A DNA stretch of 59,686 nucleotides, taken from positions 1 through 59,686 of the forward strand of contig CAZLYW010000002.1 of NCBI GenBank assembly GCA_964563915.1. The letters are read 5' to 3'. The stretch comes from an uncultured Candidatus Peribacteria bacterium (GTDB lineage: Bacteria > Patescibacteriota > Gracilibacteria > Peribacterales > Peribacteraceae). Shown in pieces: positions 18,375 to 53,821 of this stretch; the first letter of the stretch is position 1; every line of letters begins with the position of its first letter. The translations under genes and the position numbers were made by a program. The notes below the pieces were generated by a model that made no database searches, was not told the DNA's origin, and was given only the letters and a program-made list of their open reading frames with translations.

Positions 18375-19262
18375 TCATCGCGAACGTGTCGACCCAGAGC
18401 TCTTCGCACTGCGTGATGAGGTTTTCTGCTTCTTCACGGTTGAGCGGCCAGATGCGCCGATACTCTTGCGTTCCCGTTCCTGCGCTTTGCGTTCTGCTGT
18501 CTTCACTGTTTGCTCGGCACTCTTGGCGATGGCGTCGGCGGTCTTCAAGACTTCTTTCTGTGCGATGGTGAGAACCTGCTGGCTCTTCTCGAGCTGATCC
18601 AGGAGAGACGTGGTGTCCTCATCGAGGAGAGCTCCATCGATCGCCTCCGCAATGTTCTCCAGCAACGAGACGTACCGCTCTTGCGCGAGTTGGATGGTGT
18701 TCGATGGCGTCGTGCCGGGGATGCTGTCGCTGACTGGGCCGCTGAATTTCACATCACTGACTGCGAGGGAGAGATCGTCGCCCACAGCGTAGAGCTCCGT
18801 CCATGCATCGTCGACCTCTCCGTACTCATCCTCAATGTACCCGCGTTCATCGCCCGCGAGCGTCTCGCTGGAGGCTTGCACGGCAAGTTCGCGCATGCGT
18901 TTGAGGATGTTCGCTATCTCGTTCGCGGATGCATCCGCTGTCTGTATCAGCGAGATTGCGTCATTGGTATTCCTCATTGCCTGTCGGAGAGCACGAATCT
19001 CCGCATCCAGTGCCTGCGCAACGCCGAGACCAGCCGCATCATCTGCGGCTGTGTTGATTCGGAGTCCGTTCGAGATTCGCTCGAAGACGCTACTGAGCGC
19101 CTGCTGCGTCGCGTTCAATTTGTTCTGCGCGTTGATGGCCTGCGTGTTCGTGTTGACGACGAGCGCCGCGCGAAAAACCTGGAAGTGCACGGCGGCTCCG
19201 ATGAACGTCGTGAGGAGAGCACCGCTGATGATGAGGATGTGTTTGCGTGTGAGCGTAGGCAT
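18375..19262 (-). CDS. membrane-anchored flagellin N-terminal-domain protein (no flagellin C domain)
   Basis: Residues ~35-150 (NTNTQAINAQNKLNATQQALSSVFERISNGLRINTAADDAAGLGVAQALDAEIRALRQAMRNTNDAISLIQTADASANEIANILKRMRELAVQA) match the flagellin D0/D1 N-domain almost motif for motif. A TM helix (ILIISGALLTTFIGAAV) precedes this region. The C-terminus is helical and basic and lacks the flagellin C-terminal signature. Confidence 0.8.
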   Translation of the reverse strand: MPTLTRKHILIISGALLTTFIGAAVHFQVFRAALVVNTNTQAINAQNKLNATQQALSSVFERISNGLRINTAADDAAGLGVAQALDAEIRALRQAMRNTNDAISLIQTADASANEIANILKRMRELAVQASSETLAGDERGYIEDEYGEVDDAWTELYAVGDDLSLAVSDVKFSGPVSDSIPGTTPSNTIQLAQERYVSLLENIAEAIDGALLDEDTTSLLDQLEKSQQVLTIAQKEVLKTADAIAKSAEQTVKTAERKAQERERKSIGASGRSTVKKQKTSSRSAKSSGSTRSR

Positions 19263-22516: not shown

Positions 22517-24673
22517 TCAAATCAGCGGTTCTTCAAATTGTTCTTCAACTGCCGCCTGTTCCTCCTTGCTCGGCGGAGCGGCTGCAGCTTCATCCCACTT
22601 CCTCATGAACTCCTCCACCTCGGCCTTCGGGAGGCAGTACTTCTTCCGCGAGGCGGCGATGATTTCTCTGGTGAAGTCCTTCTCCACTTTGGGGACGTCC
22701 AGCGTGCGTCCCGAGAACGCTTCGCGTAGTTCACCGTTCACCGACATCTTGATGTAGAACTCGCGGACGCCCAGGTTGATGATGTCGCGCTCCTTGAAAG
22801 TGGGCGTGTACTCCTCGGCTAGGATTACCGCGTCCTCGGCGCCGACGCGGAAGTTGATGATGGAACCGACGTTGCCGAAGACGGTTTTGCGGACGACGTC
22901 CGAAAGCTGGCCCATGTACTGGTGCGCGAGCGTCATATTCAGCTTGTACTTGCGGGCTTCCGAGAGGATTTCGGCGAAGGTGTCCGTCGCGAAAATCTGG
23001 AACTCGTCGACGTAGAAGTAGAAGTCTGTTCGTTTCTCTTCGGGGGTATCTGCCCTGCTCATCGCTGCCTGGTACAGTTTCGTGATGAACATCGATCCGA
23101 TCAAAGACGAGTTCTCCTCCCCCAGCAGCCCCTTGGAGACTTTCATCAGCATGATCTTCTTCTTGTCCATGATCTCGCGGATGTCGAATTTCGTCTTCGG
23201 CTGGCCGATGATGTTCCTAATCATATTCGTCGCGACGAACTGACCGACTTTGTTGAGCAGAGGGGTGATCGCGTCGGCATCGAACTTCTCGCTCCACGCA
23301 GCGAACTCCGCGACCCAGAAGTTCTTCACCACGGAGTCCTGGATCCGCGCGACGATCTTCTGTCGATAATTCTTGTCCGTGAGCATCTTCAGGATGCTCA
23401 AGACCGTCGTATTCGGACTATCGAGGAGAGCGAGCGTCGTGTAGCGCAGAACGTGTTCGAGACGATCGGACCAGTTATTCCCGAAGAGCTTCTTGAAGAT
23501 CTGGAGGAAGCCGAGCGTCACCTGCATCTTGAACGCGTCATCAACTTTTTCGAGCGGGTTGAATGCGATGGGGAATTCCGTATCACCCGGATCGAGCAGG
23601 ATCACGTCGTCGATGCGGTTCTCGGGGATATACCGCAGAATCGCATCGACCAGGTCACCGTGCGGATCGAGGACGGCGATGCCTTCCCCGTTCTTCAGGT
23701 CTTCGTTGATGAGCAGTTCCAGCAATTTGCTCTTGCCCGCGCCGGATTTCCCGACGGTGTAGAGGTGACGTCGGCGATCGCTCCGGCGAATCCCGAACGA
23801 CACGAAATTGTTGTGGTAGTTCGTCAATCCGAACGCGCTGACCTCCTTCTCCCCCTGCTTCGGCAGGTCCTGCGGCGGATCGGATTTGCGTGCGAGGACG
23901 TGGACGATGTGCGGGACAGAGTCGGCGTTGGGAAAGTGGTACAGCGTCGCAACTTCCTTGGCGTTCAGGACAAAGGGAGTCGCGTGTATGCGCGCGCGGT
24001 AGCTCGCGATGAATTTGGTGGTGTTCTGCACGTGGTGCCCGTGCATCTCGTTGATGTCTTTCTCGTTGAACTGCGAAAAACTCGCAACCACCGCGTCCAA
24101 GTGACGGCCGGCCGTCGCGGTATCCTTGGCGACGTAGGCGCAGCGGATGCTGACGCGGAACGGTTTTATCGTGGCCTTCTCTGCGGCTTTCTCATGTCGC
24201 CGGTGGCCGACGCCCTTTCGGCCGCCCTCACGCAGTCGATCACGCACCGAGAAGAAGTGCCCGACGTCCGCGCGCCGCCGCCGCCAGTTTCTCAAGTAAT
24301 GGAACGCGCCCGTATCGTTCTGCGGTTCCGAGATGATCTGCACCCACACTTGGTCATCGCGTCCGATTTTCGAGATGACGGAGAAGAGGCGCGACCCACT
24401 GTCCTCCTCAAACACATCGTACGTCTTGATCGGATAGATGTCACTGTGGTGCAGCGAGACTTCTGCGCCGGCGAGTGTCTGCTTCGATGGATCGAAGTTC
24501 AGTGTGTAATCCTTCATCTCCTTCACTTCGGCGTCGGGAAAAGTCGCGTAGATCAACCCTTCCACCGTTTCGTACAAGTTTTCCTCCAGAACGATGAAGA
24601 AGTACGTGTACTGGGCGTAGCCGTAGAATTCGAGCGATACGCGCTTGCCCGTGAAGGTGTTCCACAGATTCAC
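22517..24673 (-). CDS. T4SS coupling-protein-like P-loop ATPase, paralog 2
   Basis: HLYTVGKSGAGKSKL, DPHGDLVDAIL, FYFYVDEFQIFAT and ILSEARKYKLNMTLAHQY are present. It aligns over its whole length with 4198-6984. GTG start. Confidence 0.85.
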   Translation of the reverse strand: MNLWNTFTGKRVSLEFYGYAQYTYFFIVLEENLYETVEGLIYATFPDAEVKEMKDYTLNFDPSKQTLAGAEVSLHHSDIYPIKTYDVFEEDSGSRLFSVISKIGRDDQVWVQIISEPQNDTGAFHYLRNWRRRRADVGHFFSVRDRLREGGRKGVGHRRHEKAAEKATIKPFRVSIRCAYVAKDTATAGRHLDAVVASFSQFNEKDINEMHGHHVQNTTKFIASYRARIHATPFVLNAKEVATLYHFPNADSVPHIVHVLARKSDPPQDLPKQGEKEVSAFGLTNYHNNFVSFGIRRSDRRRHLYTVGKSGAGKSKLLELLINEDLKNGEGIAVLDPHGDLVDAILRYIPENRIDDVILLDPGDTEFPIAFNPLEKVDDAFKMQVTLGFLQIFKKLFGNNWSDRLEHVLRYTTLALLDSPNTTVLSILKMLTDKNYRQKIVARIQDSVVKNFWVAEFAAWSEKFDADAITPLLNKVGQFVATNMIRNIIGQPKTKFDIREIMDKKKIMLMKVSKGLLGEENSSLIGSMFITKLYQAAMSRADTPEEKRTDFYFYVDEFQIFATDTFAEILSEARKYKLNMTLAHQYMGQLSDVVRKTVFGNVGSIINFRVGAEDAVILAEEYTPTFKERDIINLGVREFYIKMSVNGELREAFSGRTLDVPKVEKDFTREIIAASRKKYCLPKAEVEEFMRKWDEAAAAPPSKEEQAAVEEQFEEPLI

Positions 24674-26539: not shown

Positions 26540-26980
26540 TCAGATATCGGCCTCAGGTGTCTCCAGCCACACTGCTAACGAGCGTGCGTATGCTTGGAGG
26601 TCTGCAATCCCAGTCTGGAGATGGACATAGAGGAGGTGCGGATCCACTTCCACGTACTCGTGTACGAGCACATTGCGAAACCCTTTAGCGCGGAGCAGAC
26701 GTTCACAAAGATCTTCCGCGATTACCGATCGTTCCGCGAGGACGATCAGCGCATCCCGCTCGTCTCGCAGCCTTCGCCAGTCTTGAATGAGGACGAGCAG
26801 ACGAGAGCAGTCGATGACCGATTCGATGGCAGTCTGCATAAGCCGTTCCACGGAGAATTTCTTCTCGGGATTCCCGATCAGTTCCTGTTCTGACAGCTGC
26901 CGATAGGGCGCCAGAAGATCCAGGTTCTTCTGCAGGTAACCGAGTTTACGGATGAGCGACTGGCGGTCGGCGGGCGTCAT
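26540..26980 (-). CDS. hepT: HEPN (DUF86) toxin HepT
   Basis: R-x4-H motif (RNVLVHEY) near the C-terminus, ~145 aa, and a 4-nt overlap with an upstream nucleotidyltransferase gene. Confidence 0.85.
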   Translation of the reverse strand: MTPADRQSLIRKLGYLQKNLDLLAPYRQLSEQELIGNPEKKFSVERLMQTAIESVIDCSRLLVLIQDWRRLRDERDALIVLAERSVIAEDLCERLLRAKGFRNVLVHEYVEVDPHLLYVHLQTGIADLQAYARSLAVWLETPEADI

Positions 26981-27432
26981 GCAGCGGGTCGTGAAAGAAT
27001 ACGGTTAATGGTGATGTCCGCTTCCCGTTGAAGATAGTAGCGTTCATCGTCGTACTCACGTTCGACCTGTAACTCGTATTCAATCTTCTCTTGCCGTGTG
27101 CGCCCAAAGAGCAAGATACCTTTGCGAACGACGTTGAATTGCAGTAGCACGGGAACGTCCTGCAGGATGATCAGGTCGATCTTCTCTAGATATTCATGAA
27201 GGGTGTCAGCGAGTGCACGCATCAGGCGGATCCGCAGCTTGAATCGTTCTCCTTTATCAAGTGACGGTGCGGCCAGAATGCCGATATCGATGTCGCTTTC
27301 TTGATCTGCTCTCCCGCATGCGCGTGTGCCATGGAGGTATGCGAGATGAACAACGTCGCCTTGCGCACGCTTATTTTCGCGCTGGATCACCGTTACAAGC
27401 GCAGCCGCAATCCGTTCAGAATCACTATCCAT
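26977..27432 (-). CDS. mntA: minimal nucleotidyltransferase antitoxin MntA
   Basis: HGTRACGRADQESDIDIGIL (G.R..G...SD.D motif of the pol-beta NTase fold), paired with HepT. Confidence 0.85.
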   Translation of the reverse strand: MDSDSERIAAALVTVIQRENKRAQGDVVHLAYLHGTRACGRADQESDIDIGILAAPSLDKGERFKLRIRLMRALADTLHEYLEKIDLIILQDVPVLLQFNVVRKGILLFGRTRQEKIEYELQVEREYDDERYYLQREADITINRILSRPAA

Positions 27433-27463: not shown

Positions 27464-28576
27464 TCAGTACACCTCTTTCAGATAGCACTCCTCGCAATAG
27501 ACGATCTCTGGCCGGTCGGGCCCGTATGTCGTCCGGATCTCCCTCCCGCACTGGCCGCACGATCGCGGGTAGAGTTTGATGCCCGACCGCCGAGCAATCC
27601 GTTCATCGTGTCGGACATCCGGATGTTTGCGCGGCAGAGGGAGATCCATTTGCCGGTAGAACGCGAGCTCCTGCTTGATGATGCGGAACAGGCGGCCGGT
27701 CGCAATGCAGGTGACCGCCCAGTCGGTTACATCGTCGGGAACGTCGGCAATCGACAGCGGGAGCTTCTCCGCGGGAATCACTTTCTTCACGTTCGGTTTC
27801 TCATCCGATGGCTCACGCCACGTATACCCGCGCTTCAACGCTTCAGACTTCGTTAACGGAAAGTACTCCATCGCAATCGTCTCGTTGAATGCGAACGGAC
27901 AGAAGTGCTTGGGGAAGTATTCGCCCCACTCTGATGTTTTGCGCATGTGGTCGATCAATCGGGAGCGCAATGTCTTGAACTCGCTCTCGGAGTACTGCTT
28001 GTTGAGGATGCAGAACTTCTTCTTACGCGCGCCAATGCATCCGAAGCAGTCACTACAACCCGTACAGTGAGCGCAATACTCCAGGTTGCTGTTCCCCGTC
28101 GTGCAGGTCGTGCAGAACTTCAGGTTGTACGCATTGTCTCCGCTGGAGGACGTCTGGTAGACCAGTTCCGCCTTGTCGCCCCAGGAGTTGTAATCCATGC
28201 AGGACTTCGCCGAGAAGACGCGCGCGCAGCGGACGCAGTCTTCCAGGTCTTTGCAGTCGTAGCAGTCGATCGAATCCTTGGAATCGTAGAGGTGGTTACC
28301 GGCGCTGTTCTGGTTGTGCTCGTTCTGGACGGGCTTGTGCGGCTGCGTCCGGAAGAAGTCATCAGCGCGCTTTCTCATCGCCTGCAACCCGTCATACGTA
28401 TTCAACTTCAATGCCGCTTTCTGCTTTTCATATTCCTCTTTCGTCAGTTGCTTGTTCAGAATCATGCGACTCTTCTGTCGTTGGTTGATGCAGCCGATGC
28501 AGTCGCGGCATCCAATGCAGTTGTCCAGAAAGACACTCTCGCTACAGGTCTGACATTCCTTGACAACAAGATGTTT
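27464..28576 (-). pseudogene. 5'-truncated paralog of the Cys-rich zinc-ribbon protein
   Basis: It aligns with the C-terminal ~370 aa of 24808-26517 (CIGCRDCIGC, CSDCFGC, identical VYCEECYLK end). Homology stops at ~28576. Upstream in frame there is no ATG/GTG/TTG, only translated antisense of a plus-strand ORF. The first in-frame ATG is at 28465. Confidence 0.6.
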
Positions 28577-28978
28577 AAATGTAAAATGAACACGATGAAT
28601 ACCAGCGCCTACGATGAAGAGCTCGGCAGACTCCAGAGTACGTACGACGAGGCTGTAGCGAAGCTTGAGGAGCTCGAAGCGTCTCTGCTCAAGGGAACGC
28701 TCTCCGCGGAGCAACAGTCTCTTGCCACTGAGTACTGGTTGACTATGGTGCAGTGCGACGGCAGCGCCCGGCAGCACTATGCTCATGCGCTGAGATACGG
28801 GAATCTGACGTTCGAAGAGCGCTACGGAGGAACACATCAGCAGATTGAATTTGCATTGCAGGACTACAAGCTGCAATTGGCGGAAGCGGTGGATGACGAT
28901 GACGGCGGAGACGTCACGGAAGCGGGGACGGGATATTTCACTGATGCCGGACAGGCGGATGATTTGCCGGATAAATGA
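28571..28978 (+). CDS. hypothetical acidic coiled-coil protein
   Basis: The 3' third of ORF 27947-28978 reads as a plausible protein (SAYDEELGRLQSTYDEAVAKLEELEASLL...DDDDGGDV). Candidate ATGs are at 28571, 28586 and 28595. The ORF ends 25 nt before the RluA-type gene. Confidence 0.45.
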   Translation: MFKCKMNTMNTSAYDEELGRLQSTYDEAVAKLEELEASLLKGTLSAEQQSLATEYWLTMVQCDGSARQHYAHALRYGNLTFEERYGGTHQQIEFALQDYKLQLAEAVDDDDGGDVTEAGTGYFTDAGQADDLPDK

Positions 28979-29003
28979 GTAACCGGGACTGTAGACTCTC
29001 CGC

Positions 29004-29666
29004 ATGTCCATCTCTCGCGACCGTATCCTCTACTGTGACGACACGATCCTCGCCGTGAGTAAGCTGGCGGGGGAATTAGTTGTAAAGGGTTTCGGGAACG
29101 TGCAGAAGCTGCCGCTCCTCGATTTCCTCAGGAAGGAGTATCCTGGCATTCACCCCCTCAATCGTCTGGACTTCGAGACATCGGGGGTCGTCCTCTTCGC
29201 GCGCAACAAGAAGATTCTCGCGGAAGTCCTCGCGTCAAAATTCAAAGGCTGGAAGAAGATCTACCGGACGATCGTCGCGGGGAGAATCAAGCAGGATCGC
29301 GGCGAGATCACCATGCCGTTGCCTGCGAGAGTAAAAAAGGAAGGCAACGTCACCGCAATGACTCGCTACAAGGTTCTCCAGCGGTTCGAGAATTCTACGT
29401 ATGTAGAAGTAGAGATCGAGACCGGCCGGCACCACCAGATCCGCCGGCACTTCGCGATGATGTACCATCCACTGATCCTCGATCAGATCTATGGGGATGA
29501 GAAGGTCAATCGCAAGTTCTCGAAGCAGCTCGGGTACCGCCGGTTCTTCCTGCATGCGTGGAAAGTTCAGCTTCCCCATCCGGTGAGCGGCAAAGAGGTG
29601 ATCATCGAAGCGCCGATGCCGAAGGCATTCATCAATGTATTGAAGGAGTTGGGCATTGGGGATTAG
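29004..29666 (+). CDS. RluA-family pseudouridine synthase
   Basis: NRLDFETSGVVLFA (catalytic Asp motif), ...YRTIV.G..., TGR.HQIRRHF. Confidence 0.9.
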   Translation: MSISRDRILYCDDTILAVSKLAGELVVKGFGNVQKLPLLDFLRKEYPGIHPLNRLDFETSGVVLFARNKKILAEVLASKFKGWKKIYRTIVAGRIKQDRGEITMPLPARVKKEGNVTAMTRYKVLQRFENSTYVEVEIETGRHHQIRRHFAMMYHPLILDQIYGDEKVNRKFSKQLGYRRFFLHAWKVQLPHPVSGKEVIIEAPMPKAFINVLKELGIGD

Positions 29667-32427: not shown

Positions 32428-32943
32428 TTTTCTGATCAGGCGATAGCCCAGCAACTCCCGCCGCGCCGCTTTCGCGTTGGGATACGCGCGCTCGACGATG
32501 GCCCAGAACTTCCACGAGTGATTCTTCACCAGCCGGTGCGCAAGCTCGTGGACGGTCACGTATTCCAGGAGGTGCCGCGGGAGTTTCAGCAGAGCGGTAT
32601 TCAGTGTGATGTTCCCGTGATGCGAGCAGCAGCCCCATTGGGACGTCATGGGGCGGAAGCGGATTCTCCGGATCGGAACGCGAAGCGTAGCGGCATTGAT
32701 CTTATGTACGAGTTCTGCGATTTCTTCGGCCTGCCCGTCGAAGAGGGGGAAGAACGGATCAATGCGCATGCGCCCGCGGTCCTGCTCGAGCATCTTCACC
32801 ATTCTCCTGACCAGGCTTTCGATGTGGCGCTGTTCTTCGTGTACGCTCAAGCAGCGAGCCAGACGGATCACGATCGTATCATTCTGCAGCACCGCGCGGG
32901 AATGTCTATTGCGCGTGCGTTCGATGCGGACGGCATGAGGCAT
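32383..32943 (-). CDS. DUF45/YgjP-family zinc metallohydrolase
   Basis: SQWGCCSHHGNITLN..L..LP......VTVHELAHRLVKNHS..FW (HExxH). The last ~15 codons run into the 32197-32427 element. Confidence 0.85.
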   Translation of the reverse strand: MPHAVRIERTRNRHSRAVLQNDTIVIRLARCLSVHEEQRHIESLVRRMVKMLEQDRGRMRIDPFFPLFDGQAEEIAELVHKINAATLRVPIRRIRFRPMTSQWGCCSHHGNITLNTALLKLPRHLLEYVTVHELAHRLVKNHSWKFWAIVERAYPNAKAARRELLGYRLIRKGPSYARRSAPSYSG

Positions 32944-32944
32944 A

Positions 32945-33859
32945 TTACGTCAATCCCGGCACGTGCTTTCGAACGATGTCCACAACGGTTTCCAGATTGT
33001 CATTCACCAAAATCTTATCGAACAAATCCGCCCGTTCGCGGAAGAATTCGAGATCGCGCGCGGCGTTCTTCAGCCGGTCCTTGATGTGTTCCTCCGCATC
33101 GCGGCCGCGGAGTCGGAGGCGGTGGAGGAGGGCACTGAGCATCGCACGCTTGCTGTTGCCGGGCGGCAGGAGACCGAAACTGAGGATCGATCGTCGTCCG
33201 TAGTGCTCGGCGATGCCGCGCAGCAGGTGCATCTCGGTAATGACGACGGGGAGCTTGCCCTTTTCCCAGAGCTTCTCGATATCAGCCTTCCGGTACCCGT
33301 ACCAGCGTTCTTCGGTGGACGAGGGGAGATGCGCGAACGCGATCATCTCGCCGTTCTCCACGTATTCAGTGAATTTCTCTGTGCTCACGTACCGGTACTC
33401 GCCGTCATCACCGCTCTTCCGATCGCGCGTCGTCAGGATTGGCACGGATTCGACGTGACTGCTGAACATGTTCACGAGGAGCCGGCTCACGGTGGTCTTC
33501 CCCACGCCTGAGGGGCCGGTGAGCGCGAGGATGTAGCCGGGAAAGATTTTCTTCTTCTCGGGTTTCGCCGGTACCGCCGTCACAATCTCGTAGGCGACGT
33601 CGTAGATGCGGAGTCCATCATCACTGACAGAAGAGAGGACCATGCGCGGGCGGACTCCCTGCCCGACCGCAGGATGCGCTCCGAGGATCTGCCCGAGCGA
33701 ACGTGTACCGTCCTCCAGTTCGATCAGGCCCACCGTTCGCGGACGGTTGTCGAAGCCTTCGAGGGGGTGAGTCATAGTGGTCCAGGAGAGGACGGTGCCC
33801 TCTTGCAGCTTCCTGCGGCGTTTGGCATTCTGGCGGTGGAGGATGGGGGGGGTGGTCAT
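32945..33859 (-). CDS. fusion protein: DUF35-type OB-fold (acyl-CoA-associated) N-domain plus guanylate-kinase-like P-loop domain
   Basis: The N-terminus (GTVLSWTTMTHPLEGFDNRPRTVGLIELEDGTRSLGQIL......GQGVRPRMV) follows the DUF35 OB-fold pattern. The C-terminus (LTGPSGVGKTTV...ILTTRDRKSGDDGEYRYVS.EKF......GEM...........YGY) follows the guanylate kinase pattern. No Zn-ribbon Cys pairs are present. Confidence 0.7.
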   Translation of the reverse strand: MTTPPILHRQNAKRRRKLQEGTVLSWTTMTHPLEGFDNRPRTVGLIELEDGTRSLGQILGAHPAVGQGVRPRMVLSSVSDDGLRIYDVAYEIVTAVPAKPEKKKIFPGYILALTGPSGVGKTTVSRLLVNMFSSHVESVPILTTRDRKSGDDGEYRYVSTEKFTEYVENGEMIAFAHLPSSTEERWYGYRKADIEKLWEKGKLPVVITEMHLLRGIAEHYGRRSILSFGLLPPGNSKRAMLSALLHRLRLRGRDAEEHIKDRLKNAARDLEFFRERADLFDKILVNDNLETVVDIVRKHVPGLT

Positions 33860-33892: not shown

Positions 33893-35017
33893 TTAAGAAA
33901 CATGTTCAAGGATGTGGACGCCGCAGGTGGCAGCCGCTCCGCCGAAGTTATGAGCGAGTCCAAAACGATTTCCGCTCTTCTCCATTTGCTTCGCAACATC
34001 GATGACTTGTTTGATGCCCGTGGCGCCGACGGGATGGCCGCAACCTTTGAGGCCGCCGCTCATATTCACGCCGAGCCCGGTTGGTTTCCCATCGAACAGA
34101 TTCCTGTAGACATGAATGCCTTGCCCGGGATCGCAGAAGCCGAGATCTTCAAGATTGATCAATGCCGCGATGGAGAAGCAGTCGTGCGTCTCGAGCACGT
34201 TCACGTCGTTCAACTTGATCTCCGCTTCGGTCAGAGCGCGCTCCGCGGCGTCTTTGGTCGCCGAGAACGAGGTGATGACTGGTCGGTGGAGGATGCTCAG
34301 GCTATCGCTCGCAATCTGCGATGCGGCAATCCGAACGCCGCTCACGTGTTCGCTCGAGAGAATGCACGCCGCGGCGCCGTCGCTGATCGGCGAGCAGTCG
34401 AGCAGCCGCAGGGGGTCGCTGATCATCGCGCTCTTCGTGACGGTTTCCGGGTTGATTTCCTGCCGGAATTGCGCGAAGGGGTTCCGGCAGGCATTGCGGT
34501 GATGCACCGCGCTGACCAGGCTCAAATCCTCTCTACTGAGGCCGAAGTCGTGCATGTAGCGCTGCGCGATCAGGCCGAAGATGCCGGGGAAGGTGAGGCC
34601 GGCCGGCCGCTCCTCCTCGCTATCCGCAGCCCCCATCAGCGCTGATGCTACCGTGTCCACCGATACATCCGTCATCTTCTCGACGCCGATCACGAGGACG
34701 TTCCTCGCTCTGCCACTTTCGAGCATCGCGCAGGCCGTATGAAGCGCAAACGCTCCCGAGCCGCAGGCGGACTCCACTCTCAATGCGGGAGGATGATGCG
34801 GAAGCAGAGAGGAAGCGATCGCCGCCAGGTGCGCCTGGCCGTTCGTCACCTCTGCGAGCATGTTACTGACGATGATCATGTCGATATCGAGGGCAGTGCA
34901 CGGAGAGGAGGAGATGGCGGCGTCGGTAGCTTCTTCCATCAGGTCGCGGATGCTTTTGTCCCAGAGCTCGCCGAAGCGAGTTTGGCCGTGGCCGATGAGG
35001 TGGACAACGGAGTTCAC
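33893..35017 (-). CDS. archaeal-type (SCP-x-like) acetyl-CoA C-acetyltransferase (thiolase)
   Basis: GHGQTRFGE, VESACGSGAFALHTA (active-site Cys), C-terminal NMSGGLKGCGHPVGATG. GTG start. Confidence 0.9.
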   Translation of the reverse strand: MNSVVHLIGHGQTRFGELWDKSIRDLMEEATDAAISSSPCTALDIDMIIVSNMLAEVTNGQAHLAAIASSLLPHHPPALRVESACGSGAFALHTACAMLESGRARNVLVIGVEKMTDVSVDTVASALMGAADSEEERPAGLTFPGIFGLIAQRYMHDFGLSREDLSLVSAVHHRNACRNPFAQFRQEINPETVTKSAMISDPLRLLDCSPISDGAAACILSSEHVSGVRIAASQIASDSLSILHRPVITSFSATKDAAERALTEAEIKLNDVNVLETHDCFSIAALINLEDLGFCDPGQGIHVYRNLFDGKPTGLGVNMSGGLKGCGHPVGATGIKQVIDVAKQMEKSGNRFGLAHNFGGAAATCGVHILEHVS

Positions 35018-35064: not shown

Positions 35065-36090
35065 TCAGATGGCATGGGAGTGTTCAAGATATTCATCGTA
35101 CGTCAGATATTCAGGCTGTCTGTCATCGCGGGGGAGCTCAACTCCGTCTTTCATCATGGTCATCAGGAAGGCGTCGGAGCCCGATCCGGATCCATAGGAA
35201 ACAAGGAAGATCGTGTCACTCTTCTTTGCCTGCTCGAGAACGTACGTGAGCCCGAGAGGGGAGCAGGCGGCATAGGTGTTGCCGATGGCGGGGACGATGA
35301 AGCCGAGGTCAAGTTGTTCCTCTGTGAAGCCGAGTTTTTTCGCGACAACCTTGGGGAACTTCGCATTCGGCATGTGGAACACAACGTGATCGATGTCCGC
35401 CGGTTTCTTCTTCGCGATCGCGAGAATTCCCTTCGTCACTTCCTGCACGTGACGGAAATACGCGGGCTCGCCGGTGAAGCGTCCCGCATGGTGCGGGTAC
35501 TCTTCGCCGTTCGGGCGCCAGAAGTCCGGGGTATCCGTCGTGAACGAGAGCGTGTGCTCGATGCGGCACAGCGCCTTAGACGCCTTCTCCGACCCGATGA
35601 TCACCGCCGCCGCGCCCGCCGCCGCTGTGTATTCAAGTGCATCTCCTGGGCGGCCTTGCGCGGTGTCCGTCCCAATCGCCATTCCGTAACTCACTTGTCC
35701 GGATCGAACCATACTATCGACAATCTGCATCCCCGCCGTTCCCGCTTTGCACGCGAATTCCAGATCGGCGCAGTGGCAGAACGGATGGAGGTCGAGTGAT
35801 GACGCGAGCATCGAGCTCGTCGGCTTCACTGCGTACGGGTGGCTCTCGGAGCCGACGAAGATTGCGCTAATCTCCGATGACTGAATCTCAGCGACCTCAA
35901 TCGCCTGTCGGGCAGCCTCAAAGGCCATCGTGTAACTATCCTCCTCTCGTCCGGGCACGGTCTTCTCGCTAATCCCGAGGCCGCTGACGATGCCTTTGGG
36001 GTCTTGCCCGTGATGCTCGGCGATCGCGGCAGTTTTGACACGGTATTTCGGTAGGTATCTGCCAAAACCGATGATGGCGGAGTGAGACAT
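35065..36090 (-). CDS. hydroxymethylglutaryl-CoA synthase (short archaeal type)
   Basis: ~341 aa; IGFGRYLPKYRV, EDSYTMAFEAA, VGSESHPYAVKPT, active-site-region GTDTAQG, and a GSGSGSDAF end. ATG at 36090 inside ORF 35065-36165. Confidence 0.9.
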   Translation of the reverse strand: MSHSAIIGFGRYLPKYRVKTAAIAEHHGQDPKGIVSGLGISEKTVPGREEDSYTMAFEAARQAIEVAEIQSSEISAIFVGSESHPYAVKPTSSMLASSLDLHPFCHCADLEFACKAGTAGMQIVDSMVRSGQVSYGMAIGTDTAQGRPGDALEYTAAAGAAAVIIGSEKASKALCRIEHTLSFTTDTPDFWRPNGEEYPHHAGRFTGEPAYFRHVQEVTKGILAIAKKKPADIDHVVFHMPNAKFPKVVAKKLGFTEEQLDLGFIVPAIGNTYAACSPLGLTYVLEQAKKSDTIFLVSYGSGSGSDAFLMTMMKDGVELPRDDRQPEYLTYDEYLEHSHAI

Positions 36091-36165
36091 CCGGTGGAGT
36101 ATAGCATGGATATTTTTTGTATTCGCAGCGGTTGACCTCATTGCGAATTCTGATACCGTGCGCAC

Positions 36166-36258: not shown

Positions 36259-37417
36259 ATCGCGCGAGCTGACGATGGGCTTCTGCGAGACGGTGAGCAG
36301 CCTGCGCCGCGAGCAGCGAGATCTCTCCGGCAAGGACAGCCGCCCCGATACTCTCAGCCAGTTGTGCTTTCGGGTGAAGTGACGTCGTGTCGCCCATCAG
36401 CATCTTCAAGCATTGCGATTGCGCAGGTAGGGTTGTGCCGCCGCCGCGGAGGCCGACCAAGAGCGCGGGACATCGGACGGACACCTTCAATTGTTGATTG
36501 GTTAATTGGTTAATTTGTGTGTCACTAAGAGAACCTTCCACGACATGCGCCGCATCCTGTCCGGTTGCCAAATACAGCGCAGCAATGATGTTGGCGGTGT
36601 GGAGGTTTGATCCAATCGCGCCGGCAATTTGCGAACCGTGTTTGAGTTTGGCTTCAGCGACGGCCATCATGGCTTCCGGCGTACTCTTCAGAACATCACG
36701 GATGATCTCCGGCATCAGTGTTGCTTCGGCGGTGACTTCGTACCCGCGGCCGCACGTGTGAACACGTGCGCTGGGTTTTTTGTCTGAATCGACGTTTCCC
36801 GCGACGGTGATGAATTCCAATCCCTCAATGTTCTTCTCCATCCATTCGCCGACGGCCTGCGCGGCAATCGTCACCATGTTCATGCCCATCGCTTCGTCGG
36901 TGTCGCAATAAATCGTTAAGAAGAGGAAATGCTCTGTCGTGTCTACTTCATAGCGAAGTACTTTCAAGTGATTGCTGGTCGATTCAGCCATCGCAATCCA
37001 TTGTTCTCTCTTCTCTTCCGTGTTGCGGGTTGCGAGTTTCGGGTTGCGGGACTTGAAAGCAATTGAGCGGCTGATGCCATGATGGATCGACGTCGTCTTC
37101 ACTCCGCCGGATGCGGTCAGAGCCTTGCATCCTCTATTCACGCTCGCCACGAGCGCGCCTTCTGTCGTCGCAAGAGGGAGATGAATCTCCTGTGTCTCTC
37201 CGGAACTGAATATCACCTTCAGAGGTCCGGCGTAGCCAACGGGAATCGGGACGTGGCCGAGCATTTGCTCGCAATTCTTCTCGTCAGCATGGCCGATGTA
37301 ACCATCTGCGGGTGTCAAACGCGAGAGGTCAATGCTCAGCTCTTTCTCCACGCGTGAGCGGCGCTCAGAGCAGCGTTGTTCGGGAGTGAGGCCGCTGGGG
37401 AGCGTTCGAATATCCAT
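36257..37417 (-). CDS. class I hydroxymethylglutaryl-CoA reductase
   Basis: EQMLGHVPIPVGYAGPL, LATTEGALVASVNRGCKA, DAMGMNMV, GQDAAHVVE, GGGT.LP.Q motifs; ~386 aa soluble form. Confidence 0.9.
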   Translation of the reverse strand: MDIRTLPSGLTPEQRCSERRSRVEKELSIDLSRLTPADGYIGHADEKNCEQMLGHVPIPVGYAGPLKVIFSSGETQEIHLPLATTEGALVASVNRGCKALTASGGVKTTSIHHGISRSIAFKSRNPKLATRNTEEKREQWIAMAESTSNHLKVLRYEVDTTEHFLFLTIYCDTDEAMGMNMVTIAAQAVGEWMEKNIEGLEFITVAGNVDSDKKPSARVHTCGRGYEVTAEATLMPEIIRDVLKSTPEAMMAVAEAKLKHGSQIAGAIGSNLHTANIIAALYLATGQDAAHVVEGSLSDTQINQLTNQQLKVSVRCPALLVGLRGGGTTLPAQSQCLKMLMGDTTSLHPKAQLAESIGAAVLAGEISLLAAQAAHRLAEAHRQLAR

Positions 37418-37590
37418 TAAAAATTCTGATGTCGATTCGTTTTCTTCCTCCGCTCATTTTTAATTTTTTCAAGTAGTTTGATAACCTCAGCGGCAGGAAC
37501 CCCTCTCCTCTTACCGCCATTAGTAAAATCCACTACAGTTTCCCAGCCGTCTTCGACTCCGTCGAGAATAGCGATATTGTTGGTCCGCAT
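37417..37590 (-). CDS. hypothetical 57-aa protein in an AT-rich insert, coupled to HMGR
   Basis: Its TAA overlaps the HMGR ATG by 1 nt (TAATG). Basic C-terminus. A second 35-codon mini-ORF lies at 37627-37734. Confidence 0.35.
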   Translation of the reverse strand: MRTNNIAILDGVEDGWETVVDFTNGGKRRGVPAAEVIKLLEKIKNERRKKTNRHQNF

Positions 37591-37754
37591 AAATAAACAA
37601 CTCAAAGAAAAATTTTTACATCAAGTTCACTCCTTTCCGATATGTGTCACTTTGCATTCTAAACCTTCAGCGATGAGTCCTACCCGAAGGTTCGTTTCTG
37701 CGATATCGTCGCCAAGAACAATGATTTGCCTCATGGTCAAATCCTATACCAATT

Positions 37755-38765
37755 TTATCTGGTTTCAAGGAGTCTGGCACCCGATCCCGTCTTCGCCTCA
37801 AAAATCCTGCACCCTTTCTGCGAATGCGCGAGTTCCCGCACCGCGGTTGCCGCTTCCTCCGGACAGATCAAGTGTACCGTCGGGCCGGCGTCCATCGTGT
37901 AGAGAACCGGAAGGCGATCGGTTGTTCTCACTGTCGTGATCTCCCGGATGATCCGGTGAGTCGCGTCGTTCAGATAGTTGAGCGACGGCGTACTCGTCTC
38001 CATCACGTGATGCATATCGAGGGAATCTTCCTCGGCGACACGCTGGAGCTTCTCAAAATCTTTGTAGAGGATCGCATCGGCGCATTCCTTCTGCCGCCGC
38101 GGCATCTGCTCCAGGCGCTTCTTGTACTGCGGACTCGTCCACGCGAGCGCATGACCTTCCGTCGATCCGACTTTCTTTTCCTCCTGCGTGGGGACGACGA
38201 TGATGTCGTACAGCAGCCAATGATTCTCGTCAGCGATCTGGACGCCGTAGGAGGAATCCATTGCGTCGCCCGATCCTGCGAGCAGCGCGCCGTACCCGCC
38301 GGAGATGCTCCGCGCAGCGGAACCGGAGCCGAAGCGCGCGATCACGCTGATCTGTGCATCATTCAACGCGATGGCGTCCTTGATCAACTCTGCATACGCT
38401 TTCGCGATGCAGGCGAAGACGGCGGCGGACGAGGCCAATCCAATGGAGGAGGGGATATGGGAACGCACGGTGATCGTTACGGAAGCAGGGATGGCATTCG
38501 CGGCGCCGAGCTTGGTCAAATACTGCTTCGTCAGATCCAGATGGCGGTCGAAGCGTGCGACATCCCTCTCCTTCATTTGTTTTTCGGCATCGTCAGCGTC
38601 GAATGATCGAACGGACATCGTATCGGTATGATCGACGGTGATCTCCACGTGCGGCGTATCGAGTGTCATCGAGAGGGAATCCGCGGCGGGGAGGCGGAGA
38701 TCGTTGTTTCTATTGCCCCAATACTTAACAAAGGCAATGTTCGGCGTTGAAATCGCTTTTGTCAT
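37755..38765 (-). CDS. mvaD: (di)phosphomevalonate decarboxylase (GHMP family)
   Basis: NIAFVKYWGNRNNDLRLPAADSLSMTLD and GLASSAA are MDD signatures. ATG at 38765 inside ORF 37755-39020. Confidence 0.85.
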   Translation of the reverse strand: MTKAISTPNIAFVKYWGNRNNDLRLPAADSLSMTLDTPHVEITVDHTDTMSVRSFDADDAEKQMKERDVARFDRHLDLTKQYLTKLGAANAIPASVTITVRSHIPSSIGLASSAAVFACIAKAYAELIKDAIALNDAQISVIARFGSGSAARSISGGYGALLAGSGDAMDSSYGVQIADENHWLLYDIIVVPTQEEKKVGSTEGHALAWTSPQYKKRLEQMPRRQKECADAILYKDFEKLQRVAEEDSLDMHHVMETSTPSLNYLNDATHRIIREITTVRTTDRLPVLYTMDAGPTVHLICPEEAATAVRELAHSQKGCRIFEAKTGSGARLLETR

Positions 38766-38821: not shown

Positions 38822-39625
38822 TCAAGTAAATGCCAACACCATCCCCCCACCCACTGTCCGCGCCCCTGCCCCAAGCACTTTCGCCGCTCCGCCCCTCTTC
38901 TCGATGTCCGCGATCAGCTTCTGCACCGGTTCGGGAACCACGCCGAGTGCGACCTGGGCGCGATGATGATCGCGAATGACCGCCATCGGATCTTCGCCGG
39001 CGAGGAGGCGTTCCGTGCATTGGCCGATTGTTTCGAATGCAGCAATCACGTTTTTGTCACCCTGAGCGAAGCGAAGGGTCATCCACGCGACGAGTTCCGC
39101 CGTGCTTTCACTTGGTTTTCCCGCATCGATGAGCGTGCTGTTCTTCAGGAAGTCCAAATTCAGAGAGACCGGCTCAGGCGTCGATCCCTTTTTGAACATC
39201 ACCGGACGATTGGCCCAGATGACCGCGAAGTCGAGGCCGCTGTTGCCGGGATTGATCAGATCTTCCACGAGGACCGCCTGCGTACGGTTTTCCGGTCCCA
39301 GCAGTACGCGGCAGATTGCAATCACAAGTCCGGTCGAGGAGCCCATGCCGCGGCCGACGGGAATCTGATTCTTGATCGTGAGCGTTCCCGTTGAACTCGC
39401 TGGTCGAAGACCCGCGCTGGATTGAATGCAGAGATCAATAATCTTCCGTGCGTATGATTCTTCACCGGCCAGTCCTTCGAGAATGATCTTCATCGGCGCG
39501 TCGCCGCTCTCTTCCCACATCGCCTCCACGCCGACCGTCGTCGGTACCGCGATGCCGGGATAGCCGAATACTACGGCGTATTCGCCGGAGAGGATCATTT
39601 TGCTGGGGGCGAAGGTTCTCATCAT
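38822..39625 (-). CDS. GHMP-family kinase (mevalonate kinase or phosphomevalonate kinase)
   Basis: APSKMILSGEYAVVFGYPGIAVP and PVGRGMGSSTGL (GHMP motif); short at 267 aa. It carries GEY, where mevalonate kinases usually have GEH. Confidence 0.8.
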   Translation of the reverse strand: MMRTFAPSKMILSGEYAVVFGYPGIAVPTTVGVEAMWEESGDAPMKIILEGLAGEESYARKIIDLCIQSSAGLRPASSTGTLTIKNQIPVGRGMGSSTGLVIAICRVLLGPENRTQAVLVEDLINPGNSGLDFAVIWANRPVMFKKGSTPEPVSLNLDFLKNSTLIDAGKPSESTAELVAWMTLRFAQGDKNVIAAFETIGQCTERLLAGEDPMAVIRDHHRAQVALGVVPEPVQKLIADIEKRGGAAKVLGAGARTVGGGMVLAFT

Positions 39626-39915
39626 GGTACAATGCTCCCATGGTCGTCACTGGGCCGCAACCATTGGATGAAGCGTTTTACCAACAAGTGCTTCTCGATT
39701 ACGGGCCAGAATTCGTAGAGATAGCACGACTTGTTGAAAAGGAACTCATTGATAGTCAGCGGCGGTACGGCACGTTCAACATCATCGCAATAACAAAGCA
39801 GCGTGTGACCGATCTGTCCGATTTCGATGAAGTGAATGCGTTGCCATTCGGGTTGAATTGCGAAGTTGATTGAATATTCAGCTTCCGAATCGTCTCGTCC
39901 TTTTCTCAAAATCAT
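39622..39915 (-). CDS. hypothetical small protein between uppS and the GHMP kinase
   Basis: ATGA overlap with the downstream kinase start. C-ending codon bias like the neighbouring genes. It overlaps the uppS 3' end by ~38 nt. No homology recognised. Confidence 0.35.
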   Translation of the reverse strand: MILRKGRDDSEAEYSINFAIQPEWQRIHFIEIGQIGHTLLCYCDDVERAVPPLTINEFLFNKSCYLYEFWPVIEKHLLVKRFIQWLRPSDDHGSIVP

Positions 39916-40558
39916 CGACCGCCTTCTCAACATCCTTCGCCGTGAGATCCGGAAAGAGTTTGTCCAAAAACACCCACTCCGCGTACGTACTTTCCCATAG
40001 GAAGAAGTTGCTGGTCCGTTGCTCCCCTGATGTCCGGAGAACCAAGTCGATGTCGGGGAGTTCGGGATGATCGAGCAGCTGCTGGAAGGAATCTTCGGTG
40101 ACGCTCTTCGGATCCTCGATCTTCTGCATCGCGCGGATCAGTTCGTCTTTTCCGCCGTAGTCGACCGCGAGGTTGAGTGTGAATTCCGTCTGATCCTTCG
40201 TGTCCTCTTCCGCTTCCCTGATGAGCGCCGCGAGTGACGCGGGAATCCGGTCGAAGCGGCCGGAGTGGAGGAAGCGGGTCTTCTTCTCGAGAAAGGCCTT
40301 CCGTTCCTTACGCAAATAGTCTTCGTAGATTGTCATCAGCATGGCGATTTCCTTTTGGTCGCGCTTCCAGTTCTCTGTCGAGAAGCACCAGACGGTGAGG
40401 ATTCCGATGCGCGGATCATTCCTGCACCACTCGGTGATCGAACGGAAGTTCTCGATAGCGGTTTCGTGGCCTTTCCAGGGCTGGAGGGCGCGTGCTTTGG
40501 CCCAGCGGCGGTTTCCGTCCGGAATGATCGCGAGATGGATGGGAGAAGTCGAAGGCAT
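39878..40558 (-). CDS. uppS: undecaprenyl diphosphate synthase (cis-prenyltransferase)
   Basis: HLAIIPDGNRRWA, TVWCFSTENWKR, LRTSGEQRTSNFFLW. Confidence 0.95.
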   Translation of the reverse strand: MPSTSPIHLAIIPDGNRRWAKARALQPWKGHETAIENFRSITEWCRNDPRIGILTVWCFSTENWKRDQKEIAMLMTIYEDYLRKERKAFLEKKTRFLHSGRFDRIPASLAALIREAEEDTKDQTEFTLNLAVDYGGKDELIRAMQKIEDPKSVTEDSFQQLLDHPELPDIDLVLRTSGEQRTSNFFLWESTYAEWVFLDKLFPDLTAKDVEKAVDDFEKRTRRFGS

Positions 40559-40565
40559 GCTGACG

Positions 40566-40591
40566 GAATTGAAAATTGAAAATTGAGAATT
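40566..40591. repeat. GAAAATT word run in the idi/uppS spacer
   Basis: GAATTGAAAATTGAAAATTGAGAATT; same word family as 35022-35057. Confidence 0.75.
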
Positions 40592-41105
40592 ACGTCAAAA
40601 GTTTTTGCAATCCGATGTGAAACCACGGAGCATACAGATCGGGATGTTCCTTCATATCCTTCCGAAGATCGTTCACGTTCATCCACTTCCACTCCGCCAC
40701 TTCACCGAGTTCCGCCGTTACCGTCACGTCGTCGACGTCGCCGCGGAACATCGTCACATGCTCGTGCTCGACGCCTTTTCCCTCCGGGTCCTCCGCCTGA
40801 TAGACGAATTCTCCGACTGGCCTCATCGCGCAAGTGAACCCGAGTTCTTCCCGCAGCCGCCGGGGAGCGACGTCGGTGATCTCTTCGCCTTCCCGCGGGT
40901 GGCTGCAGCACGAGTTCGCCCAGAGGCCGGCGAAGAGCTTGCCGGCGCTTCGTTTCTGAATCAGCATTTCCGTTCCGTCATTGCGGAACACGTAGACGGA
41001 GAAAGCCCGGTGCAGCTTTCCCGATGGCAGCGCGTGCGCATCCTCCCACGAGATGGTCCCGAGAGAGGCATTGCGTTCATCGACGAGGATGAGGGGAGAG
41101 GCCAT
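40590..41105 (-). CDS. idi: type 1 isopentenyl-diphosphate delta-isomerase (Nudix)
   Basis: HRAFSVYVF, GLWANSCCSHP, A..RRLREELG. ATG at 41105 inside ORF 40590-41303. Confidence 0.9.
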   Translation of the reverse strand: MASPLILVDERNASLGTISWEDAHALPSGKLHRAFSVYVFRNDGTEMLIQKRSAGKLFAGLWANSCCSHPREGEEITDVAPRRLREELGFTCAMRPVGEFVYQAEDPEGKGVEHEHVTMFRGDVDDVTVTAELGEVAEWKWMNVNDLRKDMKEHPDLYAPWFHIGLQKLLT

Positions 41106-41637
41106 GCTTTTGGAGTTCCAGCATAGCGGTGGGAACCTGCTTGGCGAAGGGGATGGACGCCGGGATGACGATTGTGGCTGCAGCTTTGTACAGAGGATCG
41201 CGCGTATCGAGCATGCTCTGCACTTTTTCACGATGCAGTCCCTCAGCGAATTCGGGACGGGACACCTTGGCGCGTGCAAGGTGTTTCTTGATTCTCTTCG
41301 CACCTGCCTGCAGCCAGATCACGATGGCACGCCCCTCCAGTGCTTTGCGCACGGCGAAGGATTCGATGGCACCTCCGCTCAGCGTGACGACGTGGCCGGG
41401 ACGAAACGCAGAGAGGGCGATCTGCTCTTCCCTCCGGCGGAAATTCTCTCACCCATGCCGCGTAATGTATGCGTAGTGATCGCCGTGGCGTTCTTCGAAT
41501 ACCCGGTCGGTGTCCACCCGCTTCCACTCGAGCTTGGACGCCAGCCGCTTGCCGAAGACGGTCTTCCCCGCGCCGTTCGTGCCGATGACCGCGATGCAGC
41601 GGGTGCCGATAGTCTTGCTGAGAGAGGAATGCTCCAT
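41077..41637 (-). pseudogene. shikimate-kinase-family P-loop kinase interrupted by one in-frame TGA (codon 63)
   Basis: One continuous frame reads MEHS..IAVIGTNGAGKTVFGKRLA...VDTDRVFEERHG....ITRHG-TGA(41451-41449)-ENFRRREEQIAL...VTLSGGAIES...IVIWLQA....RPEF....RDPLYKAAA. The start overlaps the mgtE stop (TGATG) and the end overlaps the idi start. Confidence 0.7.
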
Positions 41638-51772: not shown

Positions 51773-52129
51773 CTATGTACAATTTTGGCTGAGGCGCATG
51801 AGCAGATAACCAACTCGGTTGATCCAATCATGCCCATTTGCGAAAGCTTCTTGGTCGAGATAGCCCACGTCGCGAGCTATCCGCATCTGACAATGCAATT
51901 CTTCTAGAGAGGATTGTGCGATGTTAAAGAACCGTCGTTTGTCTTTTTTCGTTCTTCTGCTATTCCCCTCAGCAATATTCATGGGCACGCTGTATGCCGA
52001 TCTGCGCATTTGATCCGCCAACGCAAATTTTTCATGTTCTGGAAATGTAGCGGCAAGCGTATTGATCCATAAGAACAATTTATGAGCCTCTTGCCACACG
52101 ATGAGTCGTTCATATGGTCGCTGATACAT
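51773..52129 (-). CDS. four-helix-bundle protein (23S rRNA intervening-sequence protein family)
   Basis: YERLIVWQEAHKL......L...FP..EKFALADQMRRSAYSVPMNIAEGNSR....D..RF..IA.SSL.EL is the family pattern. ATG at 52129. Confidence 0.85.
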   Translation of the reverse strand: MYQRPYERLIVWQEAHKLFLWINTLAATFPEHEKFALADQMRRSAYSVPMNIAEGNSRRTKKDKRRFFNIAQSSLEELHCQMRIARDVGYLDQEAFANGHDWINRVGYLLMRLSQNCT

Positions 52130-52247
52130 GAATTGACAATCCCAGATCGCCAGTCCGAAAAAAAGGTAGCAGTGAAATATCATTTTTCTCATTCAAGACT
52201 TTTCCTCATGCAAAAGCTAAAACTGGACGTTCTACACCCCTGTGGAA

Positions 52248-53675: not shown

Positions 53676-53821
53676 AGTAAGGGGGGGTTCCCGCCTTCGC
53701 CCGCGGGCTTCGGCGGGCAGGCAGGGGAAATCCAACAATTATAGCGCAAAATGGCGTTGTACGGAAGATCCACAAACGCGACAGAAGGAACCCCTCGGCG
53801 AGGCTCGGGGCAGGCTCCAGA

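Follow-up and report, generated by a model that had tools for sequence, protein, structure and literature searches.

The gene at positions 32945-33859 (- strand) of a 59,686-nucleotide stretch of DNA from an uncultured Candidatus Peribacteria bacterium (GenBank assembly GCA_964563915.1, contig CAZLYW010000002.1; this whole stretch is referred to below as the window) encodes a fusion of a DUF35-type OB fold and a guanylate-kinase-fold P-loop kinase domain in which, judged from sequence, the phosphoryl-transfer apparatus is complete and the guanine-reading residues are replaced. The gene closes a mevalonate operon whose decarboxylase looks like the phosphomevalonate type. We tentatively propose, as a reading that may well be correct and is still somewhat short of probable, that the DUF35 scaffold domain tethers a new P-loop isopentenyl phosphate kinase (IPK). 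The architecture is solid, and so, on sequence similarity, is the re-typing of the pathway; the enzymatic assignment is offered as a specific hypothesis. The features of the fusion gene were:

32945..33859 (-), whole fusion gene, 304 aa; ATG-start open reading frame (ORF), PF01796 and PF00625 above gathering scores, AlphaFold2 (AF2) mean pLDDT 89.6
33803..33859 (-), N-terminal helix, aa 1-19, at the usual place of the rubredoxin-like zinc ribbon; AF2 helix 5-17, no conserved Cys
33584..33802 (-), OB barrel of five strands, aa 20-92, DUF35/OB_ChsH2_C type, presumed module for docking on thiolase/HMG-CoA synthase; Pfam, profile and Foldseek matches
33536..33583 (-), linker, aa 93-108, of variable length and poorly conserved; gaps in the family alignment and a dip in pLDDT
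32963..33535 (-), guanylate-kinase-fold P-loop kinase domain, aa 109-299; Pfam, NCBIfam, alignment and fold
33491..33517 (-), P-loop GPSGVGKTT, aa 115-123; alignment of 116 members

Both domains named in an earlier note on this DNA were recovered with scores above the Pfam gathering thresholds. OB_ChsH2_C/DUF35 (PF01796) matched aa 20-72 (E 2.8e-10; 40.4 bits vs 27.1), a significant hit within residues 1-95, and Guanylate_kin (PF00625) matched aa 112-298 (E 7.7e-16; 58.7 bits vs 25.2). The motifs GPSGVGKTT, TTRDRKSGDDGEYRYVS and YGY were all present in the 304-aa translation, in agreement with the description of the C-terminal part as a complete guanylate-kinase-type P-loop domain. The AlphaFold2 model, based on an alignment of 112 relatives, consisted of the N-terminal helix, a five-stranded barrel (residues 21-92), a linker of lower confidence and a kinase domain of alpha/beta type.

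The junction between the two halves is real, since it was supported by 166 full-length relatives, by the order thiolase-then-fusion in 33 independent loci and by two independent assemblies. Contigs assembled independently from two hot-spring metagenome runs spanned positions 32800-33790 and 32846-33805 with zero differences and zero gaps. At the level of contigs, no stop or start separated the halves, and the assembly or frameshift artefact against which the note had cautioned was ruled out by the identical junction and by conservation of the architecture in over 160 proteins. The note had supposed the architecture to be undescribed; the literature searched, to which most subscription journals did not belong, contained no account of the fusion and no paper on a guanylate-kinase-like IPK.

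A search of 5.8 billion proteins yielded 485 relatives of the fusion protein. Nearly all of the best 120 had both domains in a length of about 305 aa, and those carrying a name belonged to Candidatus Peregrinibacteria/Peribacteraceae. An exhaustive search with the kinase half alone returned 19 clusters (at 50% identity) with E<=1e-30, after which scores dropped to the 60-70 bits of ordinary guanylate kinases. Because of this drop, the kinase subfamily is, as far as sequence scores define it, small and sharply bounded against ordinary guanylate kinases. Both searches combined gave 166 fused and 21 unfused sequences, the full-length fused ones reaching down to approximately 40% identity. A metagenome scan added nine subfamily loci; the remaining 31 loci were non-members, for the most part ordinary guanylate kinases or partial matches of short length. 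A rough neighbour-joining tree (constructed without support values) had unfused sequences as its deepest branches, with fused forms arising among these and about 20 unfused sequences nested inside a fused clade. This topology suggests one fusion event, after which the OB domain was lost at least once.

Foldseek searches with the kinase domain returned only guanylate kinases as top matches, including GMP-bound structures (TM up to 0.86, rmsd about 2.1-2.6 Å, 21-27% identity). Residues were compared by alignment to yeast guanylate kinase, whose residue roles we take to be those of the GMP complex 1gky/1ex7. The P-loop stretch G115-K121 was identical in all 116 aligned members, with T or S at position 122 and a nearly invariant T123. 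The LID arginines R247, R251 and R262 (yeast R131, R135 and R146) were invariant in the same 116 sequences, and the acceptor-phosphate binders R145, K/R148, Y155 and Y187 (yeast R38, R41, Y50 and Y78) were invariant or nearly so. The guanine readers were replaced throughout the family (166 fused and 21 unfused sequences): S34 by I, E69 by A or S, S80 by Y, D98 by I or V and D100 by E, which correspond to I141, A174, Y189, I207 and E209 in the window protein. A four-residue, family-specific insert beside the acceptor site carried near-invariant E183 and R185.

On this comparison, the domain has the guanylate kinase fold yet fails the substrate features that define the family (PF00625), whose members include Gmk (EC 2.7.4.8) and the ribose 1,5-bisphosphokinase PhnN. 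With these it shares fold, P-loop, LID arginines and acceptor-phosphate residues and, as expected, the type of reaction, from phosphate monoester to diphosphate. It differs from them in its low identity, its guanine-reader positions, its insert, its OB domain and its score of 88.1 bits against the gmk equivalog TIGR03263 (cut-off 160.45). In addition, the complete genome of Ca. Peribacter riflensis, a relative of the window's genome, was annotated with a separate gmk (gene _213, 200 aa, 157.7 bits to K00942; supplementary annotation) beside its fusion (gene _643, 312 aa, 103.7 bits to K00942), which directly follows the thiolase gene. The alternative raised in the note, that the gene is simply the cell's gmk captured by fusion, therefore fails, and the replaced guanine residues likewise rule out that it is the cell's only gmk. 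The note's other idea, a tethered nucleotide or phosphoryl-transfer enzyme, was narrowed: a kinase stands, of guanylate kinase fold and without guanine recognition, and a generic nucleotide kinase does not.

The fusion was the final gene of a same-strand run of isopentenyl-diphosphate isomerase (IDI), undecaprenyl diphosphate synthase (UPPS), mevalonate kinase (MVK), decarboxylase, HMG-CoA reductase (HMGR), HMG-CoA synthase (HMGS) and thiolase, in keeping with its placement at the end of the mevalonate operon in the note:

33893..35017 (-), acetoacetyl-CoA thiolase, archaeal type, directly upstream of the fusion; best Protein Data Bank (PDB) match 6esq_A, 254 bits; NCBIfam
35065..36165 (-), HMGS, archaeal type; NF003274 436.7 bits, above cut-off; best PDB match 6esq_I, 364 bits
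36257..37417 (-), HMGR, class I; PF00368, E 5e-95
37755..38765 (-), decarboxylase, phosphomevalonate (PMD/MPD) type, called diphosphomevalonate decarboxylase by annotation models; Anaerolinea thermophila phosphomevalonate decarboxylase (AthPMD) 6n0x, 186.6 bits; Asn/Arg/His signature
38822..39625 (-), MVK-like GHMP kinase, the operon's only one; TIGR00549 80 bits, no phosphomevalonate kinase (PMVK) model matched
39878..40558 (-), UPPS (cis-prenyltransferase); PF01255, E 2e-67
40590..41105 (-), IDI type 1 (IDI-1), Nudix fold; NF002995 137.5 bits vs cut-off 127

Gene order was identical in every related locus with sufficient flank. The thiolase gene lay directly upstream of the fused gene in 33 of 33 fused loci (24 species-level genomes, one further contig and eight metagenome contigs), including a member that was just 40% identical.

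The authors of the Peribacter genomes described genes leading up to mevalonate-5P and from mevalonate-5PP onward and described the pathway as 'near-complete' (PMC4736985). The annotation table for the complete genome of Ca. Peribacter riflensis listed neither a phosphomevalonate kinase (K00938) nor an IPK (K06981). The operon's sole GHMP kinase matched mevalonate kinase models and no PMVK model. For the fusion protein, neither GHMP PMVK nor the animal P-loop phosphomevalonate kinase (PMK, PF04275) occurred among the best 25 of 31 Pfam families or the best 25 of 74 NCBIfam families (E<=1).

The type of decarboxylase indicates which kinase is missing. The best solved relative of the window enzyme was 6n0x/6n0y (186.6 bits), with every true diphosphomevalonate decarboxylase (DMD) at or below 124.6 bits; 6n0x is AthPMD with mevalonate 5-phosphate (MVA5P) bound (PMC9254496). 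Lys21 is present in classical enzymes and missing from the monophosphate type, in which position 27 is Arg (Dellas 2013, Table 4, PMC3857490). The window decarboxylase reads KYWG-N...R-LP and GSTEG-H and agrees with AthPMD at the two positions where the variant 6n0z departs from it (N->K, H->M); we infer 6n0z to be a specificity-switch mutant. Conversion of PMD to DMD specificity through mutagenesis has reportedly been accomplished in work on engineering of PMD specificity. The Asn/Arg/His signature was found in the decarboxylases of 17 of 18 related operons. The sole exception, in locus L014, has Lys at the first discriminating position and was still closest to AthPMD (215 bits vs <=145). This enzyme (L014 4696-5721, Peregrinibacteria Greene0416_19) is just 28% identical to that of the window and contains a long insertion.

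Since the decarboxylase looks, by sequence, like the phosphomevalonate type, the missing enzyme would be an IPK rather than a phosphomevalonate kinase. The pathway most likely consists of mevalonate kinase, phosphomevalonate decarboxylase, isopentenyl phosphate kinase and IDI, with the fusion kinase as the candidate IPK. Such a route resembles the mevalonate pathway of Haloarchaea and Chloroflexi (MVK, PMD, IPK; Dellas 2013, PMC3857490) in its MVK and in a PMD-type decarboxylase closest to that of Anaerolinea thermophila. It differs in that no canonical IPK was found here and a guanylate-kinase-fold domain is proposed in its place.

The zinc ribbon found ahead of the OB fold in ordinary DUF35 proteins (PMC12960953) is truly absent from the fusion, because no Cys was conserved in the N-terminal part across 112 relatives and the family profile aligned only to residues 47-109 of the 130-aa DUF35 chain 6esq_E. 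The lack of a CxxC ribbon remarked on in the note was thereby confirmed, and the OB part is a DUF35 member without one of the family's two modules. The family profile had 6esq_E/6et9 as its best DUF35 structure, with E 3.2e-4 for the full profile and 8.9e-5 for the N-terminal profile. The PDB title of 6esq identifies it as the thiolase/HMG-CoA synthase complex from Methanothermococcus thermolithotrophicus. When the OB part was modelled by itself (pLDDT 87.3), its 16 best Foldseek matches were DUF35 subunits of thiolase-fold complexes (TM 0.55-0.67), from MucABC, the 6esq complex, PhlABC, benzoylsuccinyl-CoA thiolase and Ltp2-ChsH2; generic OB folds followed only afterwards. Sequence and fold both placed the OB part closest, among solved structures, to DUF35 subunits from the archaeal thiolase/HMGS complex and from derivatives of it, which agrees with the note's premise of a DUF35 type that docks on thiolase-fold enzymes.

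Thiolase, HMGS and OB domain each had their best solved relative by sequence in the same complex, 6esq; for HMGS the margin was 364 bits vs 162 for the next best structure. The scanned ORFs of the window included no second DUF35 gene, and neither did the table of annotations for the complete Peribacter genome. By analogy with the archaeal complex, the OB domain would be the DUF35 subunit of a thiolase/HMGS complex. With the archaeal subunit (6esq/6et9) and its relatives PhlB, MucC, BbsA and ChsH2-DUF35 it shares the type of OB fold, and its gene directly follows the HMGS and thiolase genes, themselves closest to 6esq subunits. It differs in lacking the zinc ribbon.

Unfused members of the subfamily provided a second genomic context for the kinase. 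These 21 proteins of 200-235 aa lack the OB domain and have the same residue signature as the fused forms; they occur in contigs labelled Kaiserbacteria/Paceibacterota. UPPS adjoined the unfused kinase in all seven recovered contexts, and IDI-1, above equivalog cut-offs, lay within 1.5 kb in four of the seven and overlapped the kinase stop codon in locus L025. No gene for thiolase, HMGS, HMGR, MVK or decarboxylase occurred in the fetched flanks (10 kb). Synteny of IPK and IDI-1 has been described in other bacteria of the candidate phyla radiation (CPR; PMC6107057), which the linkage of unfused kinase and IDI-1 appears to mirror. Because no decarboxylase is encoded near the unfused kinases, a phosphomevalonate kinase would be useless beside UPPS and IDI-1, and an isopentenyl phosphate kinase would be useful there.

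The two most divergent unfused members have a gene of the histidine phosphatase family (His_Phos_1) that overlaps the kinase start and is translationally coupled to it (L032 5073-5600 and L033 719-1357), which suggests a kinase/phosphatase pair. In Parcubacteria-type contigs, genes with a lycopene-cyclase domain (PF18916) adjoin the module of UPPS, kinase and IDI (L026 8593-9369 and L030 11233-11949).

In the proposed mechanism, the OB domain would dock the fusion protein onto the products of the upstream genes, thiolase and HMGS, as DUF35 does in 6esq. The kinase domain would move the gamma-phosphate of ATP onto isopentenyl phosphate (IP) to form isopentenyl diphosphate (IPP), with the same chemistry as the conversion of GMP to GDP, and could thereby complete a route via mevalonate kinase, phosphomevalonate decarboxylase, IP kinase and IDI. 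It would act as a non-homologous stand-in for the canonical IPK (EC 2.7.4.26, K06981), which it would resemble in reaction, in its pathway position after phosphomevalonate decarboxylase and in linkage to IDI-1. The canonical enzyme has an amino-acid-kinase fold with invariant residues (e.g., H60 in M. jannaschii) and the fusion is of the P-loop, nucleoside monophosphate (NMP) kinase type, so the latter would be an analogue and not a member. Animal phosphomevalonate kinase is itself a P-loop, NMP-kinase-like analogue of the GHMP enzyme. It offers a precedent for replacement of a non-homologous mevalonate-pathway kinase by a P-loop nucleotide-kinase fold; it belongs to another subfamily, acts on what is, on present evidence, another substrate and has no OB fusion. 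Beside UPPS and often IDI-1, the unfused kinase may supply IPP from a salvaged C5 monophosphate where genes of the upstream pathway are not nearby. The wider proposition, that the kinase domain founds a new, non-homologous class of IPK, welded to DUF35 and completing an MVK-PMD-IPK pathway in Peribacteria, and that its unfused form with UPPS and often IDI-1 constitutes a minimal salvage module for IPP and dimethylallyl diphosphate (DMAPP) in Parcubacteria-type lineages without nearby mevalonate genes, is a possibility that we hold with marked reserve.

Several points weigh against isopentenyl phosphate as the substrate and against docking by the OB domain. The substrate is deduced from genomic context and from absent residues, and the PMD assignment from likeness to one characterised enzyme and from two or three positions, the first of which is Lys in L014. 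A hydrophobic C5 tail gives no obvious need for the near-invariant E183, R185 and E209, which would also suit the carboxylate and the hydroxyl group of phosphomevalonate. Because the IP kinase step is adjacent to neither thiolase nor HMGS in the pathway, there is no obvious substrate channelling, and the fusion would provide co-localisation or fixed stoichiometry instead. The absence of mevalonate genes around unfused kinases applies to the 10 kb of flank only, and binding of a ribbon-less DUF35 domain to thiolase/HMGS is presumed from its relatives. Finally, each of two genes in the Peribacter genome could be a cryptic IPK: an orphan ProB-like amino-acid-kinase gene (265 aa, below the KEGG Orthology threshold, without a proA partner) and a gene with weak likeness to ArgB.

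The main rival explanation, which we regard as unlikely, is that the domain is a phosphomevalonate kinase that converts mevalonate 5-phosphate to the 5-diphosphate, in parallel to the animal P-loop enzyme, and that the decarboxylase acts on the diphosphate. This would place the missing step where the genome paper left its gap, between mevalonate-5P and mevalonate-5PP (PMC4736985), in an operon without a GHMP PMVK. It would also agree with the window decarboxylase passing the NCBIfam diphosphomevalonate decarboxylase equivalog (186.7 vs cut-off 171.35) and scoring far below the cut-off of the PMD model, and with the DMD-type Lys of L014; the invariant R185, E183 and E209, together with extra arginines, could then hold the carboxylate and hydroxyl. 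Phosphomevalonate kinase was in fact our first hypothesis. It was downgraded because the solved PMD is a much nearer relative of the decarboxylase than any solved DMD is, and because the decarboxylase has the PMD residues at both positions of the 6n0z variant. The unfused kinases, next to UPPS and often IDI-1 with no decarboxylase nearby, likewise argue for an isopentenyl phosphate kinase.

Improbable in our judgement is an action on some other phosphorylated small molecule, whether related to isoprenoids (dimethylallyl phosphate or a longer prenyl phosphate) or not (a sugar phosphate, as for PhnN), with the operon linkage reflecting regulation or recycling and not the main pathway step. PhnN, which belongs to the guanylate kinase family and acts on a non-nucleotide substrate, is weakly similar to the domain. 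The histidine-phosphatase gene coupled to the most divergent unfused members and the HAD phosphatases of some operons hint at a phosphate cycle, and no neighbour of the unfused forms is as constant as UPPS. Such a function would, however, leave the step from IP to IPP without a candidate in the operon, and the conserved linkage to IDI-1 and to a complete mevalonate operon points to the C5 stage.

A genuine guanylate kinase, either a paralogue or the cell's gmk, fused by chance or coupling GTP supply to isoprenoid synthesis, is very improbable: the PF00625 match, the fold and public annotation as guanylate kinase speak for it, and the family-wide loss of guanine-specific residues, the score of 88 bits against a 160-bit cut-off, the separate canonical gmk and the sharp boundary of the subfamily speak against it. 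Hardly credible is a non-catalytic, MAGUK-like binding module that replaces the zinc ribbon in a thiolase/HMGS complex, for although MAGUK matches recall guanylate kinase domains turned into binding modules and the HMGS bridge may need a substitute for the lost ribbon, invariance of the P-loop Lys, the LID arginines and the phosphate-binding Arg and Tyr in about 190 sequences would be unexpected without catalysis, and the domain persists unfused where thiolase and HMGS are not nearby.

Other genes of the operon were considered as sources of the missing kinase. Gaps in related operons, whose translations were read by eye, contained a HAD phosphatase, a trans-prenyl synthase and hypothetical proteins; neither a second GHMP kinase nor an IPK was hidden there. 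A P-loop gene resembling shikimate kinase, just upstream of IDI (41077-41637, -), was rejected as a candidate: only two close relatives have the ORF, and in the window it is interrupted by one in-frame TGA at 41449-41451. As the intact relatives L002 and L006 have a Trp codon at the aligned position, this TGA is a TGG->TGA nonsense change (pseudogene or sequencing error) and not general recoding. A promoter and terminator scan of the operon was uninformative, with terminator-like sites at chance level.

Between decarboxylase and HMGR, an ORF of about 62 aa (37417-37605, -) recurred in the corresponding place in L002 and L019 and in a different place in L016 (tblastn E ~1e-8); it matched no family and may be a conserved small protein of the operon. 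Some Peribacteria operons have a HAD/NagD-type phosphatase gene on the opposite strand between MVK and decarboxylase (L002 3582-4634, -; L004 4340-5209, -), which is also gene _638 of Ca. Peribacter riflensis. The remainder of the window (gyrA, SHMT, dnaX, clpC, rpsA, dus and others) is similar to the neighbourhood of the mevalonate operon in that species.

Elsewhere in the window, adjacent genes for a HepT-like ribonuclease and a Pol-beta-type nucleotidyltransferase (26540-27432, -) form a HepT/MNT-type toxin-antitoxin pair. A flagellin N-terminal domain (PF00669, E 3e-29), unexpected for a CPR-type genome, is encoded by an ORF at 18375-19262 (-). Type IV secretion is represented by scattered components, namely two VirD4/TrwB-like coupling-protein ORFs and one protein of the PrgI family (4198-6984, +; 22517-24673, -; 53025-53738, -). 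A long ORF with many CxxC pairs (27464-29011, -), whose scanned part matched no Pfam family, is in line with the cysteine-rich proteins described for Peribacteria, and a free-standing gene at 51773-52192 (-) encodes a protein of the 23S rRNA intervening-sequence family (PF05635).

The fusion protein is a candidate for the phosphorylation step left unassigned in the 'near-complete' mevalonate pathway of Peribacteria (PMC4736985), and the pathway is re-typed such that the missing enzyme would be an isopentenyl phosphate kinase and not a phosphomevalonate kinase. It is also the first case found of a DUF35 scaffold with a catalytic domain and without the zinc ribbon, which bears on how the thiolase/HMGS complex is built. 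If the proposed activity is correct, it would represent a second independent invention of isopentenyl phosphate kinase, on a nucleotide-kinase scaffold and in parallel to the animal P-loop phosphomevalonate kinase, and it would correct the labels 'guanylate kinase', 'OB-fold domain-containing' and 'hypothetical protein' under which family members appear in public databases. It would further give a lead on the source of IPP for undecaprenyl phosphate in CPR bacteria that lack both known precursor pathways, and the unfused salvage module would explain how these reduced bacteria obtain their cell-wall lipid carrier.

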